Below, piece after piece: positions 6,001 to 12,000 of a stretch of DNA of 64,000 nucleotides; within the stretch, counting starts at the first letter, position 1, and each line of letters begins with the position of its first letter. The position numbers are program-made. Source of the DNA: Christensenellaceae bacterium (GTDB lineage Bacteria > Bacillota > Clostridia > Christensenellales > UBA1431); the NCBI GenBank assembly GCA_963675355.2, contig CAXXMZ010000004.1, positions 1,077 to 65,076 on the forward strand, in the 5' to 3' direction.

Positions 6001-9000
6001 TTAATAATATTTCAGGACAAAAGGTTTATTGCGTGCAAGCCAATTTATTAAAGCGATATCAAGATATATGGATGAATAGAACAGGACTTGCGGAATGGAT
6101 GTATGCAACTGCACTTGAAGAATGGGATATTATGATAGAACCAAATGATACGTATCCTGGATCTATATACATAATCGTAAAAACGTCTGACATGACGGAA
6201 AAAGAAATTGATGAGTTAATAAGGAGCATAGGTATAACAGTTAGCGCTCGGAATGTTAAATGGCTCCCGTTTGTTACATCAGAAACTGTATATTTTGAAA
6301 AATAAATATAGTTGACTAATATTAATTGACCTTGCTTCGTGCAGGGTCAATTAGTGTTTTAGTAAAACGATTAGTGTGGTTGACACTGAGATAGTGCTAG
6401 GTATTATGATCCTGAAACGGGCAGGTTTATCAGTCAAGATAGTTTTCGTGGTGACGGAGAAGTTTTCTGGCATCTGTATGCGTATTGTGACGGTGATCCC
6501 GGTGAACTGTACGGATCCGACCGGGCATGCGTATAGTAGAGCAAAAGCAGTGGCATATGCTATGAAGTGGGCTATGAGCAGAAATACGCAATATCAAGAC
6601 TTTGGACGTCATGATTGTGCAAATTTTGTTTCTCAGTGTCTACATGCTGGAGGGTTCACGATGAATAATAGCTGGCATTCCTATCATAAGAAAAAAAAGT
6701 ACGGGTACATTTGGGGAACGTATTATTATTGGGATATTTCAGATGCTTGGAAATTTGCAGATGGACAATATAAGTATTTTAAAAACTCTGGAACGGTAAA
6801 AAAGATAAATTATAAAAATCAAATTAAATATCTAGCAAAAAAGGTTAAAGTTGGAGACCCCCTGTATTTTGATGATACCGGAGATGGGAAAATGAATCAT
6901 GCAACGATAATTAGTGCAGTTAATAGTAAAGAAGGAAAGATTTGTTATGCTGGTCATTCTAATAACAGGAGGTATTGGGGTCTACATCAAACTTTTAAAA
7001 ATAATGAGAAAAAAAACATTTATGTAATACATATGGGGTGAATGGGATGAGGAAATTTATAATTAATTATAAATGGATTATAGTAATTGTAGTAATTGTA
7101 ATATGTTGTGTAGGCGGTATTCTGTTTATTAATTCAGGTATTAATGGTCAACTTATTAGTTGTTCAAGAAGTGAAAGTTTTATTAATAACTTTGTTAGAT
7201 CTGAGTCTGCTTCTGAATTTCATGAAGAATTTAAAAATTTTTTTAATATGGAACAAGAAGTAGTTGAGGAAATGTATAAAAATCCAGAAAGGTACACTAC
7301 ATACTGGATAGTGGTTAATATTTATAATGATGCAAGTTATAAAATATATGATGTCAGACCAAGTTTGGGAACGAAGTTTGATAATATGTGGATACGTCAA
7401 GATACGTTTTCTGACTTTTCGCTTGATTTGGAGGCAGGTCAGAACTATATACATTCTGTTGCAATAATAATAAGAACAGAAGGCATGACGGATGATGAAA
7501 TTGATAACTTGATTAAAAGCGTAGGCATAACTATTTCGGCAAATATATTGGCAGATAGTTTCCCTATAGTTGCTTCGAAAACAATTTACTTTAATAAATA
7601 AGGTTTAGACTAGGTTGCTGTCCAACTAGATATAGAACACATATTTTCATGCTTACTTTTCCATTTCATGGTGAGTAAGCATGATTCGTATACCGTGTAA
7701 TGCGGGACATAGAGATCATATGAATGACAATTTAGCAAATGCATAAATCACTAATTGGTGGTGCAGTTTGGGCATGATGGGAGTGTAAGCTTTTATAACC
7801 CTCGGACTAGTATTTATGCACCGCGGCTATCTAATAATCAAGATGGGTACTGTAAATATTTGTTAGGCAAAAGCTTGTTCCCCGTTAGGATGACAAGAGG
7901 TAATTGATCAGCTAATAAGAAGTATAGGAATAACAGTAAGTGCTGAGAATGGTGAAGTGATTCCTCTTTATTACATCAGAACCACTATATTTTGAAAATT
8001 AAATATAGTGGTTGATTGTTTTCGATAATTAGCACTTAGGGGCAGATTTCATTCATGAAAGAATAGGATTTATGGGGTTTTCACGATAGGGCAAACTAGA
8101 TGTTTGTAGGATTTGAGTAGTTTTGAGAGTGCAGGATAGATATTTTTGGATTTCGTTTGCAGGGGGGCATTACAGTTGGTCAAAAGCGCCAATATCATAT
8201 CTGGCAGTATAAGCTTGAGCAGCTTTTAGAAGCTGATGGCAAGCTGATGCTGGAGTTTAATAAAAATGATGCCGTAAACACCAGTGAAACGCTGGTTTTT
8301 TACATATTAAATGAGAAAATAATGGATCGTAAATATGACGATAACATAGAATATAAAACTGATAAAAATGGTAATGAAGTCAGGGTGAAAAAGAACCTTC
8401 TTCCTATTATCACCATAGAAACAGGTAGGAGCAAGAACAAAGAGCAAACTGTAAAGCTTGAGAAGTTGCTCAAAGAGGGCTTTCATACTGATACACAACC
8501 GCAGAGACACTTCGTGTTTTTAGATAATGTCTTATCAGGCTCTCAGAACAAAGAATGTAGGCAGATGTTTATTTTAGAAGAATACTATGATGACTTAAAA
8601 GCGCATATCTCACTTGGCATAGAACCATCTAAGTGTACTATCTCAAAAAACCTTACAAGAAACGCTTTGACCACTACTGATGTTCATTTGGTTCCAGTGG
8701 ATATGAAAAACTTGGGCATTTGTATTATTCCCGACTGCGAAGTGCCAGTTTTGAAACAGTAAATATGATTAAGCCATATAATCGTACTCCAGAAGAAGAA
8801 CAGCAGTATGCGGAATTAATGGCTTGGATTGAAGCGGATAAAGAATATTATAAGAAGAAAAAATCAGGAAATAATCTTGTGAATTCTAAGCATTGTACTC
8901 TTGAAAAGCAAACAAAAAGTAACAGAGATAAAAAGATATACAAGACGGTTAACCAGTGGAAGGAAGCTGATCGCAAAGTAAAGGCAGATGAACTTGAGAA

Positions 9001-12000
9001 TCCAAAAGCTAGATTTTATTCAGATGATAAAGAAAAATGCTATGCCCTATATATAGAAGAACAGACAGAAGAGTTAAGAGAAATCCCTATTACAGAGTGG
9101 TCAACAGGACTCCAGCTTGTTACCGAGAAAAACCACAAATGCATAGAAAATGTATTTGATGGCATGGGACTTGTTAGTAAACGGTTAGGAAAGAAATTTA
9201 AAGAACACTTAGACGTAAAACATAAGATTACAGGTTATCAGCTGAGACTGCCTTGTATAAAAGGGTTCTTTCCATGCGTGGATTTTCATGGATATTCTAA
9301 AAAACATGGGATAGAAACTATTACAGATATATGGGGTACAAGCCATTATATAAAGGATATAGACCTGTTAATTACAGAATCTACATTTAAAGCTAAGTTA
9401 AATGTAGTAGAAACAAATGACGATGGGTCTGAGGAAAAAGATTGGTTGTTTACGTCTATTAATGATTATAAGGATAGGCTAATGAGATATGGTTATGATG
9501 CCATAGGTATTTCGAATTATGCAAAGCCTATTGAAGAACAATATAGACGTGCAGCTTATCAATTATGGCTGGCGCTTAATGTTAACAACTACGATATGAT
9601 AGCATTTTCAAATGTACAGGGCGATGTAATTCATAAGGCGTTAACTATTTATCGCAAAGAAGAATTAGACTGGGAAGATATAAAATACATATTAACTTTT
9701 TTGAATCTAGTTAAAAAAGAAAACGCAGACACGAATCTAGAAAAAGAATGTTCAGATGCTATTAAAGCTATACATTTAAACAAGAAAATGGTTTTTGATA
9801 GGAAAGTTATTAAAACCATTAGAAATGTAATAGTTAGAAAAATTGAAGATATGTGTCTAGGTAGAATGTATATTAAAGGGAGATATATGTACGTTACTCA
9901 GGATATATTAGCGTTTTTACGATATGCTGGTTCAACTGATAAGAGAAACTGGCAATATAAAGGGTTTTTAAACAAGAAAGAATGTTATAGCAGTGGAACA
10001 ATTGTTGGCAGAACGGTTCTTGCAAGAAATCCTGTTGTAAGTTATTTAGAAATTACAAAGGTGGATTTTGTAGATTATGATGGAGAGGATTCTGAGTTTA
10101 TTAAGCATATTGATAACATAGTACAACTTCCGCTTGGAATTGAACCAGATAGACTCGGCGGATTAGATAAAGATGGCGATGAGGTGTTAGTTTTATCAAC
10201 TGACTATAATCTAAAGGATACCCAAATAGAATATCTGCAAAATTGCATGAACGAAAAAATTCAAGAGCATTTTAACAACAAATTTCCTGACAAAGAAGTT
10301 GTAACACTTGCGGATTATATAGTCCCTTCATATGTACAAGTTAATGATGATGATAAAGCTACTGCCATGAGTAAGGAATGGAATAAAGAAAACGTTATTG
10401 ATTTTATTTTGTCGTCAGAAGATAAGACGGGAGTAATTACTGATATAGATACAACTATAGCGAACATAGGTAATGCAGAAGGAGATATAACGAAGTATGC
10501 TTTACCAATTGCAATCATGAAGGACTTGCAAGGTAAAATGATTGATGCAAGCAAAAGCGGTTTGTTTGATCAGGTGGTTATCCCAGAGGTTATCAGATTC
10601 AAATACAATAAAAGACCTCAGTTCATGTTTTATAAAGACGGAAATGAATTTAATAAGGACTGCGATACAGTTTCAGCACTAGATTTCCTGAAAAATGAGA
10701 TGGAGAAATCCAAGAAATATGTTGACCAAGTAATGGTTGAAAATGTGAATCGTAAGATAAAGGATCAGAACTTCAATAATATCTATAACTATTTAATGAA
10801 CCCCGAATTAGATGGGGGAGTTGTGCAGAAGATTATTGAGGATTTAGATGGTGTATATTCCCACTTTATACAGGCAAACAGAACATTAGCTATATTGAAA
10901 TCAAGTATTAATGCTTATTCTAGCGATGATAAATATAAACGAGAACGTGAAGTTGTAGACCAGCAATTTAAGGACTTGTATGACAAGATAAGAATGGCAG
11001 CAGAGGAAATTTGCAGTTGTCCATCGTTACTTGCAACTGCTGCTGTCAGGATGACATATATTAATAATCAGAATGACAACTATTCTTTTTGCTGGGTTGT
11101 TGCTTCTGAGGGTATTCTTCAAAACATCAAGATGCACGAGGATAAAGAGAAGATATACGTGGTTGGAGCAGATGAAAATGAACAGGATTCTTTTGCGTGG
11201 CTGGGGGAGTTATATAAAACTCAAATTTCAGAAGATGAGTACCCATTAGAATTTGATATGAGTATTCCGGAAGAATATTTGAGGAAGAAAGCCGAGGAAC
11301 TGCCTGATATTCATGATCTTACAATAACCATTATGGGTGTTGAAAAGGAAAAGGCAAAAGAAGTAGCTGCTGAAATGCTAAACAACAGCTTTAAGATATT
11401 TGTGAACGATAAAGGTTGGGTTGGAATATTGGGAGATATGAGCATAAAAGAAAGAGAAACGCTTACTTCAGGAGTTGATTTGCGAAAATATATTGGTCAT
11501 GATGTTATGATTAAAGAAATTATTACAGCTAAGAATACTCAAACCGTAATCAAAGTGACTGTTGATATTAAAGGTTAGCCTTATTGCCAGCGAAGCTGGC
11601 GTAGGGTGGACAATACAAGGGTAATATCTTGCCGTTTAAATTATTTTAATAATCTAGTATAAGGGGGGATTTTTAATGATTTATTTGTGATAACATAGTA
11701 AAAAATCAAGCACGTGTTGTTTATCTTAGATTAAAGATATCTATATGTTTAGGTGTTTTTTATTTTGTCATTTTTTATATTCATTGATTGAGGCAAAGTT
11801 AGGCGTTTTGTTTTTCACTAAATATTGTAAGCACTATTAAAATTAAATTTAAAGGGGGACAACTAATCTGAAACTTAAAAAAACTGAACAAATTGTAAAC
11901 ATGGATATCAATGATAATTCTCCAAAAGAGATAGTTGATAACTTTGTATACTCACAAGAAATCTTGTATGGTAATAACGTTAATAAAACACAACGAAAAA

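Follow-up and report, generated by a model that had tools for sequence, protein, structure and literature searches.

The window, that is, the whole 64,000-nucleotide stretch of Christensenellaceae DNA analysed here, carries one gene for a YonO-like RNA polymerase, broken by two deletions, whose intact relatives probably encode the transcriptase of a tail-less capsid island, an account to which we assign a probability of roughly 60% as a whole. The YonO-like clade comprises bacterial and phage relatives of the eukaryotic cellular RNA-dependent RNA polymerases (RdRPs). Homology, fold, active-site residues, frameshifts, synteny and a cis element were observed directly, and template specificity and target genes are proposed by analogy with YonO. 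The enzyme is of a known kind, and its place in a tail-less island appears to be undescribed.

Two open reading frames had been noted in a preliminary description of this DNA, and both are present on the forward strand: ORF 1 at 8157-8762 (201 aa), and ORF 2, which ends at 11578 and measures 937 aa from the ATG at 8765 or 952 aa from a TTG at 8720. The interpretation in that description is largely borne out, the split being the part to amend. The ORFs are pieces of one gene (8176-11578) for a polymerase of ~1,134 aa. Relatives are single chains of ~1,166 aa spanning both ORFs; in tblastn mapping with P0005, P0003 and P0002 as queries, residues 3-192 of P0005 fell on the N-terminal domain (Table 1) and residues 179-1166 on 8708-11575 in another frame, and adding two bases to the window sequence gave an open frame of 1,134 aa, 75% identical to P0003. 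Because these relatives match both ORFs colinearly, the signature blocks from which the gene had been recognised in ORF 2, FDGMG, QLRLPCIKG, ARNP and DKDGD, are not chance resemblances. The upstream blocks LSGSQNK, KNLTRNAL and IIPDCE lie in ORF 1. Translation probably starts at the TTG at 8176, since the window with one A supplied reads TTG GTC AAA AAG CGC and is translated as MVKKRQYH, with which intact relatives such as P0005 begin.

Table 1. Features of the polymerase gene, its island and related relics in the window.
Feature	Position	Strand	Remark or evidence
Ribosome-binding site AGGGGGG (likely)	8161-8167	+	precedes TTG start
Start codon TTG (likely true start)	8176-8178	+	alignment
N-terminal domain	8181-8750	+	polymerase residues 3-192; tblastn, hhalign
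Frameshift site 1	8182-8185	+	A4 against A5 or A6 in relatives; one nucleotide deleted
Frameshift site 2	8748-8753	+	GTTTTG, GTTTATG in relatives; 1-nt deletion, ~8749
ORF 2	8765-11578	+	insertion, both double-psi beta-barrels, helical head domain, C-terminal beta-rich extension
Insertion relative to YonO	~8765-9130	+	within ORF 2
FDGMG, first barrel	9155-9169	+	D at 9158-9160
QLRLPCIKG, first barrel	9239-9265	+	active-site R, K
ARNP, second barrel	10022-10033	+	active-site R, P
DKDGD, second barrel, metal-binding	10166-10180	+	aligned to YonO DNDGD
Conserved non-coding element	11586-11640	+	directly 3' of polymerase stop codon
First hairpin GCCAGC-GAA-GCTGGC	11586-11600	+	part of conserved element
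TAGGGTGG motif	11602-11609	+	part of conserved element, which also has a second, weaker hairpin
SF2/ResIII-like helicase candidate	11868-14005	+	717 aa in relatives; frameshifted
Frameshift in helicase candidate	13860-13863	+	AAAAG, AAAAAG in L001; 1-nt deletion in A-run
ParB-N6 methylase	14520-15758	+	Pfam/PHROGs
HTH/small-terminase-like	15824-16360	+	Pfam/PHROGs
Tyrosine recombinase	16445-17344	+	Pfam/PHROGs
Large terminase	17392-18993	+	Pfam/PHROGs
Portal	19273-20520	+	Pfam/PHROGs
Scaffold	20898-21497	+	Pfam/PHROGs
Major capsid	21507-22337	+	Pfam/PHROGs
Head-tail adaptor	23215-23523	+	Pfam/PHROGs
192-aa structural-like protein	23787-24365	+	Pfam/PHROGs
Large serine recombinase	24625-26235	+	Pfam/PHROGs
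Structural-gene piece	33793-33891		relic of related island
Serine-recombinase fragment	38990-39754		relic of related island
Polymerase relic	60946-61173 (60898-61215 vs P0003)	+	tblastn, blastn

The window protein alone had no match in Pfam, PHROGs, NCBIfam or PDB sequence searches, so that the link to YonO and the RdRPs had to be drawn from profiles and structure. A family profile recovered SPbeta YonO, as proposed from the motifs, with an hhalign probability of 99.1% (E 1.4e-18, 407 columns) across the ORF junction, YonO residues 124-227 aligning with the ORF 1 part and its upstream blocks. P0047 forms a bridge, matching the window protein at E 1e-23 and YonO at 3e-22 (tblastn), and the Pfam RdRP family PF05183 was matched by two of 19 aligned family members (best E 1.8e-18), within the clade of P0047. 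A full library search returned 2,224 cluster representatives at E<=1e-3, and most of the matches listed have a YonO-like length of 840-940 aa. The window polymerase belongs to a long subfamily of 1,100-1,230 aa, ~300 aa longer than YonO overall; the ~130-residue insertion described between IIPDCE and FDGMG, before the first barrel, is borne out by the profile alignment, in which family residues 190-325 face YonO residues 227-245.

All eight invariant two-barrel active-site residues are present in the window protein: in alignment A4, D132, R161 and K166 of the first barrel and R421, P423, D468, D470 and D472 of the second are invariant, as are K158, P186 and D187 of the N-terminal part in the aligned relatives. 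The motif residues, including the DxDGD loop, are invariant among 19-31 aligned relatives. The D132-R161-K166 spacings (29 and 5) are those of QDE-1 D709-R738-K743, and R421, P423 and D468/470/472 correspond to QDE-1 R962, P964 and D1007/1009/1011 (PMC2919709). AlphaFold models of the window's own 937-aa ORF (pLDDT 84.6) and of a full-length relative that shares 75% identity with the window protein after repair (pLDDT 87, pTM 0.80) both retrieved QDE-1 and RDR2 as top PDB matches (Foldseek, probability 1.0, E 1e-11 to 1e-14; 750-1,100 aligned columns, 9-15% sequence identity). The crAss-like phage phi14:2 RNA polymerase came next for the full-length model (E 2.9e-6), and a viral structure library yielded phage proteins annotated as RNA-dependent RNA polymerase (E 8e-29 and 4e-24) as well as crAss-like homologues. 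The polymerase is of the single-subunit, two-barrel type and belongs to the YonO-like clade.

Among known enzymes, YonO is homologous across the N-terminal blocks and both barrels and has the same eight active-site residues; its gene likewise lies upstream of structural genes on the same strand, with a stem-loop directly 3' of it. The two proteins are only ~20-25% identical, YonO has 839 aa against ~1,134-1,166 aa, and its home is a complete 134-kb phage, SPbeta, rather than an 18-kb tail-less island; the window gene is also frameshifted. QDE-1 and RDR2 (PF05183), with identical D...R....K and R.P...DxDGD spacing, are the best structural matches, but PF05183 is missed by the window protein alone, the window gene lies in a bacterial mobile element, and the characterised bacterial relative is DNA-dependent. 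Phi14:2 gp66 (PDB 6VR4) is also a phage single-chain two-barrel polymerase, but it is virion-packaged, has 2,166 residues (PDB chain) and is far more distant than YonO or the RdRPs.

The division into two ORFs is present in the window and is not a trait of the family: each of the 18 RNAP-bearing loci checked (16 genome and 2 metagenome) has the polymerase in a single frame. A single frameshift had been implied at the ORF junction, but two were found (Table 1). The frame of the TTG, a third frame, is left after three codons at the A4 run, where L001 reads ATG GTT AAA AAA CGC CAA TAT CAT, and as sequenced it reaches a stop after 17 codons. At the second site the A of a Tyr codon is missing by DNA comparison with L001 and L002. 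The helicase candidate is also broken, residues 1-671 of the 717-aa L001 protein matching one frame of the window and residues 669-717 another (tblastn). Each of the three lesions in these genes removes one nucleotide, and in two cases A5 has become A4. Judged from these frames, a full-length enzyme cannot be made from the gene as sequenced, and the intact single frame of the relatives points to assembly error or recent inactivation rather than a designed split.

A functional split, by programmed ribosomal frameshifting, transcriptional slippage or two assembling polypeptides, is thus very improbable, even though ORF 2 has its own ATG three bases past the ORF 1 stop and two-barrel polymerases divided between chains are known, for example the beta and beta' subunits. 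Besides the 18 one-frame loci, most database relatives are single chains of ~1,160 aa; GTT TTG AAA does not fit the X XXY YYZ pattern of slippery heptamers, efficient transcriptional slippage takes longer runs than 4-5 bases, the window sequence has no ribosome-binding site ahead of 8765, and the extra frameshift just past the start codon would also need bypass.

We give about even odds to single-base sequencing or assembly undercalls within or next to A/T runs, in which case the organism would make a full-length polymerase. Every lesion is a 1-nt deletion, the one that is not A5 to A4 dropping an A beside a T run; the gene has no in-frame stop or other damage, its catalytic residues are all intact, and the repaired protein keeps its 75% identity across the full length. 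P0002, the closest relative and from the same source type, breaks off as well, at an apparent frameshift close to residue 999, and nine frame changes lie in the 5.7 kb upstream. Several of these upstream changes have no homopolymer at the junction, however. Elsewhere in the island the genes for terminase, portal, capsid, methylase and the two recombinases, ~8 kb together, are intact, and a contig of 78 kb would fit better with a short-read assembly, in which such errors should be rare. Real mutations, leaving the polymerase and helicase genes dead and the island copy defective or domesticated, are quite possible, with chances a little short of even. Short A/T runs are the commonest sites of spontaneous frameshifts too, the three lesions all hit the two leading genes of the island, those needed to start the cycle, and the window holds further relics of related islands; a small ORF conserved after the polymerase gene in relatives is missing, and the second hairpin is weak. 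Yet a 3.4-kb gene without nonsense codons, larger deletions or relaxed sequence and the intactness of the other island genes speak against decay, and homopolymer sequencing error predicts the same pattern equally well.

The scrap of a second copy reported near the end of the window is real. It is 53% identical over 76 aa (tblastn) and 71% over 225 nt (blastn), covers only C-terminal residues ~1009-1080, keeps a 4-aa stretch absent from the main copy and is flanked by unrelated host genes; it is the remnant of a second, diverged polymerase copy.

A conserved 18-kb module of helicase, ParB-methylase, recombinases, terminase, portal, capsid and adaptor opens with the polymerase gene, which is plausibly the island's first. 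The helicase assignment rests on weak ResIII and Helicase_C_2 matches of its relatives. No tail or lysis genes were found in the island with Pfam and PHROGs; an intact relative was annotated as well, and no repressor or regulator gene was found adjoining the polymerase gene in the window. The tail-less capsid island of the preliminary description also holds, with the same order in relatives: polymerase, replication gene, ParB-methylase, HTH, tyrosine recombinase, terminase and portal are kept in 16 genomes, and the structural half from portal through serine recombinase recurs in ~20 viral contigs, where the recombinase ends the layout 6.7-8.4 kb past the portal start and there is no tail, holin or endolysin gene. 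The early half is found in genomes of two bacterial orders.

A decayed ordinary prophage, stripped of tail and lysis genes and with the polymerase a leftover late-gene polymerase as in SPbeta, is unlikely. YonO-like genes do occur in complete phages (SPbeta, Clostridium phage c-st, and Thomasclavelia and Enterocloster phages), and the relative L002 has amidase and restriction-modification genes upstream, but the compact layout recurs in ~20 independent viral contigs and its early half in two bacterial orders, a pattern that selection for this architecture explains better than the same decay happening over and over. The island is most likely a cf-PICI-like satellite, occurring in Clostridium and Paenibacillus, that would behave as satellites do. 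Like a cf-PICI, it is integrated and has a large terminase, portal, scaffold, major capsid and head-tail adaptor without tail, holin or endolysin genes; an HNH-like nuclease is present in the relative L055, and island relatives carry defence cargo at the edge. Unlike a cf-PICI, it has a large serine recombinase as integrase, placed at the far end, and a tyrosine recombinase in its interior. Regulators of AlpA, MerR or Stl type were not found in it, and Clostridium and Paenibacillus are absent from the families named for cf-PICIs in the portions of the literature covered. The papers searched yielded no cf-PICI that has an RNA polymerase of its own.

Directly 3' of the polymerase gene lies a conserved hairpin element. 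It was seen 4-15 nt past the stop codon of the polymerase in 33 sources, and 1.77 Mb of sequence held hardly any other example. Its six stem sequences all keep the base pairing, and it had no match in Rfam. It is a candidate start or boundary signal for the polymerase switch, although it lacks a U-tract, occurs once per island, not ahead of each gene block, and has a weak second hairpin in the window.

The SPbeta late genes are transcribed by YonO, a strict DNA-dependent RNA polymerase with a strong DNA-template preference, as one operon whose start site lies downstream of the YonO gene (PMC5467207). Against a like role here, RNA-templated enzymes are the nearest solved structures, and QDE-1 accepts DNA and RNA templates (PDB entry titles). 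The enzyme might instead make dsRNA or antisense RNA for regulation or helper-phage interference, or replication primers; its neighbour is a replication gene, which encodes a helicase in this island and a primase-helicase of D5 type in Paenibacillus polymyxa, and the hairpin could serve as an RNA or single-strand DNA recognition element. We consider this improbable: YonO, the only characterised bacterial member, is DNA-dependent and a late-gene transcriber (PMC5467207), and a second primase would be superfluous in those relatives that have a D5-type primase-helicase. We favour an island transcriptase. In intact relatives, where the polymerase gene comes first in a co-directional module, on an island with capsid genes and an integrase but no tail genes, the host polymerase would transcribe the island polymerase gene on induction, and the island enzyme would then transcribe the downstream helicase, packaging and capsid genes, by which island expression may become independent of the host polymerase.

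Fifty relatives of the polymerase protein were recovered from 5.8 billion proteins searched, and the close relatives among them are single proteins of ~1,162-1,175 aa that cover the whole query; a few of the fifty are named 'RNA dependent RNA polymerase' by NCBI or have precomputed Pfam matches, to RdRP (PF05183) or to 'RDRP C-terminal head' (PF26253). The preliminary description had reported two ORFs at this place, and both were found as described, at 8157-8762 (201 aa) and 8720/8765-11578 (952 aa if begun at TTG, 937 aa if begun at the ATG of 8765), as were the FDGMG, QLRLPCIKG, ARNP and DKDGD motif blocks. 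Aligned with tblastn, the relatives are colinear with the window, residues 3-192 matching 8181-8750 in one frame and residues 179-1166 matching 8708-11575 in another, so that the two ORFs constitute one gene. The third, short tblastn match, at 60898-61215, bears out the scrap of a second polymerase copy that had also been reported.

Both ORFs are present in the window sequence, but the split is not a trait of the family, as the N- and C-terminal parts share one frame in all 18 polymerase-bearing loci checked (16 genome, 2 metagenome). At ~8749 the window reads GTTTTGAA where the intact relatives at loci L001 and L002 read GTTTATGAA, which DNA comparison identifies as a 1-nt deletion. A further lesion, overlooked in the preliminary description, lies at the start of the gene, where the A4 run at 8182-8185 needs to be A5: the N-terminus of the relatives is MVKKRQYH or MIKKRQYH, and the window sequence TTG GTC AAA AGC..., with a ribosome-binding site rated good (AGGGGGG, 8161-8167) eight bases 5' of the TTG at 8176, yields MVKKRQYH only when this run is read as A5. 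With these two 1-nt deletions the window lacks an intact polymerase ORF; restoring both bases opens a frame of 1,134 codons, whose product shares 75% identity with the full-length relative P0003. Programmed frameshifting was considered and dropped, the frameshifts being unconserved in the orthologues checked and no X XXY YYZ heptamer being present at 8745-8753; the single frame in 18 loci and the absence of a slippery heptamer make a programmed or functional split of the gene very unlikely.

The next gene carries a third 1-nt deletion (A5 to A4, at 13860-13863), and assembly error and real mutation are about equally probable as the origin of the lesions in the two genes. All are 1-nt deletions in or beside A/T runs, nonsense codons are absent, the active site is fully conserved, and the closest relative, P0002, is likewise truncated with an apparent frameshift, all of which speaks for errors of assembly. 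Genuine decay is favored by the intactness of the other island genes over ~8 kb, with the three lesions confined to the first two island genes, by relics that related islands have left in other parts of the window, and by the RHS-repeat region upstream, where several frame changes occur without a homopolymer at the junction. The relics include the C-terminal half of the serine recombinase (38990-39754, 89% identical), a piece of the 192-aa structural gene (33793-33891), a third, distant serine-recombinase fragment (45698-46246) and, just past the recombinase gene, a 63-nt repeat of its 3' end (26411-26500; 26118-26180/26437-26499). These relics suggest that such islands have repeatedly inserted and decayed in this chromosome. 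Truncation of the 192-aa structural gene was dropped as a sign of decay, as loci L100, L086 and L041 also have no long ORF there and the gene is followed by a terminator-like hairpin.

Searched directly, neither window ORF matched Pfam, PHROGs, NCBIfam or PDB sequences, and the family profile run against PDB sequences gave only a chance match, so that the identity of the protein is settled by profile-to-profile comparison and structure. Neither ORF reaches the curated threshold of Pfam RdRP PF05183, which 2 of 19 aligned relatives do (best E 1.8e-18); this limits the Pfam label and not the homology, because the model was built mainly on eukaryotic sequences. The proposed kinship with SPbeta YonO was upheld by a 19-sequence family profile, which aligned to YonO over 407 columns (hhalign 99.1%, E 1.4e-18) from family residue 93, in the N-terminal ORF, to the DxDGD loop, thus crossing the frameshift, and ORF 2 matches YonO in pairwise BLASTP with E 2e-6. 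The insertion noticed between the upstream blocks and FDGMG appears in the profile alignment as family residues 190-325 opposite YonO residues 227-245. Another database relative, P0047, is intermediate, with E 1e-23 to the window protein and a tblastn E of 3e-22 to YonO and many SPbeta-like phages.

Structures were modeled with AlphaFold for P0003 (pLDDT 87.0, pTM 0.80) and for the 937-aa ORF of the window itself (pLDDT 84.6, pTM 0.79). The anticipated fold with two double-psi beta-barrels was recovered in these predicted models with a Foldseek probability of 1.00 (RDR2, E 2.9e-14; QDE-1, 4.3e-12), and the top PDB matches are cellular RdRPs only (maize and Arabidopsis RDR2 and QDE-1, E 2.9e-14 to 1e-10), followed for the full-length model by the crAss-like phage phi14:2 polymerase (2.9e-6) and then, weakly, by beta' subunits. 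Against the viral structure library, phage proteins that carry the annotation RNA-dependent RNA polymerase rank highest, and A7KVB1 comes third (E 1.5e-15). The conservation of the DxDGD loop was likewise borne out, D468, D470 and D472 of ORF 2 being invariant in 31 aligned sequences together with D132, R161, K166, R421 and P423. The eight residues that define all two-barrel polymerases are, in QDE-1, D709, R738, K743, R962, P964, D1007, D1009 and D1011 (PMC2919709), and the active-site spacings, in order, are 29, 5, 2 and 45 in ORF 2 versus 29, 5, 2 and 43 in QDE-1. We conclude from profiles and models that the window protein is a predicted two-barrel polymerase of the YonO-like/cellular RdRP clade. 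As minimal single-chain relatives of the cellular RNA polymerases as a whole, YonO-like enzymes have, to our knowledge, been studied only in the case of YonO. When 1.84 billion representatives were searched exhaustively with the profile, 2,224 matched at E<=1e-3, and among the best 150 of these ~25 have the long form (1,100-1,230 aa), the rest being mostly of YonO-like length. The polymerase itself is a member of an already known kind of enzyme, YonO-like proteins having been known in phages and Firmicutes 'main genomes' since 2003-2010 (PMC2919709, PMC5467207).

Features of the polymerase gene, the island and related loci (window coordinates unless a locus is named)
Feature	Location	Strand	Annotation source
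FDGMG block	9155-9169		
QLRLPCIKG block	9239-9265		
ARNP block	10022-10033		
DKDGD block	10166-10180		
Hairpin GCCAGC-GAA-GCTGGC, then TAGRG	11586-11600		
Two-hairpin element with TAGRG linker	11586-11640; L001 5787; L005 13510; L021 13529; 29 other sources		
Small ORF in relatives	L001 5874-6065; L002 13634-13789; L021 13607-13804		
Helicase-like gene	11868-14005	+	
ParB-N6 methylase	14520-15758	+	Pfam/PHROGs
HTH/small-terminase-like protein	15824-16360	+	Pfam/PHROGs
Tyrosine recombinase	16445-17344	+	Pfam/PHROGs
Large terminase	17392-18993	+	Pfam/PHROGs
SPP1-type portal	19273-20520	+	Pfam/PHROGs
Scaffold	20898-21497	+	Pfam/PHROGs
Major capsid protein	21507-22337	+	Pfam/PHROGs
Head-tail adaptor	23215-23523	+	Pfam/PHROGs
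192-aa structural-like protein	23787-24365	+	Pfam/PHROGs
Large serine recombinase	24625-26235	+	

Nearly all genes of the ~18-kb island lie 3' of the polymerase gene and run in its direction, and host-type genes follow the serine recombinase. In agreement with its earlier designation as tail-less, the stretch at 8.1-26.2 kb, where some small ORFs are unannotated, yielded no gene for a tail, holin or endolysin, and 25 kb of the island, compared by megablast with collections of phages and plasmids, had no match. The arrangement recurs: the polymerase gene is found at 16 genome loci in Clostridium, Paenibacillus and Aneurinibacillus, and where enough flanking sequence is available it is followed by the ParB-methylase, HTH, tyrosine recombinase and terminase genes. 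About 20 IMG/VR contigs sharing the portal carry scaffold and adaptor genes, nearly all then an Ig-domain protein and a serine recombinase, with 6.7-8.4 kb between where the portal gene starts and where the recombinase gene ends. At least 10 of them also bear the polymerase gene, and wherever a viral contig includes a serine recombinase, the interval from the portal to it showed no genes for tail, holin or endolysin. With PHROGs, a major head protein was identified in addition in the intact example L055, as was an HNH-like nuclease, and again there were no tail or lysis genes. Intact copies are also present in culturable hosts, such as Clostridium acetireducens DSM 10703, Clostridium guangxiense and Paenibacillus polymyxa, and in Paenibacillus agricola the polymerase gene occurs three times, each time on another contig (L008, L009, L011).

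Defense cargo lies directly upstream of the polymerase gene in L001 (2-2191), L021 (3461-9777) and L002 (2995-9906) and comprises a PLD-like anti-phage helicase, proteins with CTD7, MC3 and LmuB_C (Lamassu-related) domains, a restriction-modification pair and a 73-aa PC4-like single-strand DNA-binding protein; because relatives carry such genes there, the placing of the window polymerase as first gene of the island is plausible only. In L021 (Paenibacillus polymyxa CP071875, 10001-23522) a nitroreductase gene follows the terminase, and no portal gene was called in the 818 nt of flank left 3', from which it appears that some family members may lack the capsid block.

The gene following that of the polymerase is one of a small family that has no annotation and is ~717 aa long in relatives, with Walker A (GEGKS), IIDEK and QQIGR motifs and an invariant Cys cluster, and its relatives match ResIII and Helicase_C_2 weakly; judged by sequence, it probably encodes an SF2 helicase. 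The same replication slot is occupied by a D5-type primase-helicase in L021. Relatives also have a conserved small ORF of 51-65 aa (MAGWLMFNRFHK...), without family annotation, 3' of the polymerase gene, which was sought at 11579-11900 of the window and found absent.

Directly after the polymerase gene, the 30-70 nt past the stop codon are 94% conserved, versus ~70% for the gene itself, and single-sequence folds and a pattern scan resolve this stretch into a two-hairpin element whose stem occurs in six variants across loci, with Watson-Crick pairing kept in all. RNAalifold on a MAFFT alignment of the element, in which two clades are misaligned, returned no pairs, and an Rfam scan of window 7500-14600 returned nothing. 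In the pattern scan, 33 of 119 sources (1.77 Mb) contained the element, with 35 occurrences in all, about once per island, always on the strand of the gene and within ~15 nt of the stop, barring one extra copy 3.2 kb downstream in a contig sampled twice (L033, L047). It has no U-tract; terminator-like hairpins occupy the same spot in more distant polymerase relatives, and the SPbeta record annotates a stem-loop directly 3' of yonO. As a candidate signal, the element could act as promoter, as boundary or in regulation.

Upstream of the polymerase gene, window 1-5700 contains ten overlapping open frames with RHS repeats and nine frame changes, and only relatives of <=41% identity were found when a close homolog of the RHS gene was sought; this region represents either an RHS toxin locus in decay or a consensus sequence of poor quality. 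Amidase_6 toxin-like and immunity-like cassettes follow at 6376-7601, with partial duplicates at 4992-5129 and 5763-6302. On the minus strand at 62195-63952, an FtsX/MacB-type permease is represented by two ORFs (152 and 424 aa) sharing one frame with a stop codon between, either a nonsense mutation or two adjacent genes.

Among known phage satellites, the island resembles capsid-forming PICIs (cf-PICIs), which are published as having their own capsid and packaging genes and lacking tails and holins (PMC10085698). Large terminase, portal, capsid and head-tail adaptor genes are present in the island (17392-23523), L055 has the same packaging and capsid set plus the HNH-like nuclease, and tail, holin and endolysin genes were not found. 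Cf-PICIs have an integrase, an AlpA/MerR/Stl-type regulator and a primase-replicase at the leading end; the island differs in the types and positions of its recombinases, in having no recognized regulator that we could find, and in its host taxa. A literature search of limited coverage returned no paper linking YonO-like polymerases to phage satellites, PICIs or tail-less islands.

YonO is a strictly DNA-dependent, highly processive RNA polymerase expressed upon prophage induction, whose promoter and cofactors were still undefined in 2017, and it is the only YonO-like polymerase for which template-dependent RNA synthesis is known (PMC5467207). We infer for the island a mechanism in which the host enzyme would first make the island polymerase, which would then transcribe the co-directional helicase, packaging and capsid genes, with the post-stop hairpin marking a boundary or the start of a second transcription program. 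Alternatively, the island polymerase may have an RNA-templated or priming role. Under the transcriptional reading, to which we give roughly one chance in three, tail-less capsid-forming islands of Clostridium and Paenibacillus would own a single-subunit two-barrel RNA polymerase and a dedicated hairpin, they would be satellites with autonomous, host-orthogonal transcription, and a YonO-like enzyme would have, in this hairpin, its first candidate recognition signal. What appears new is that a long subfamily is combined with a constant position in compact tail-less islands and with the hairpin element.

For annotation, the consequence is that the 'two ORFs' of the window are one frameshifted gene. 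For the long subfamily, the compact, repeatable context of the polymerase gene is a useful property, and the covarying hairpin provides a concrete candidate for promoter recognition or transcript boundary control. If the islands are satellites, they would be the first we could find with their own RNA polymerase, and the view of satellite gene expression during helper-phage takeover would change.
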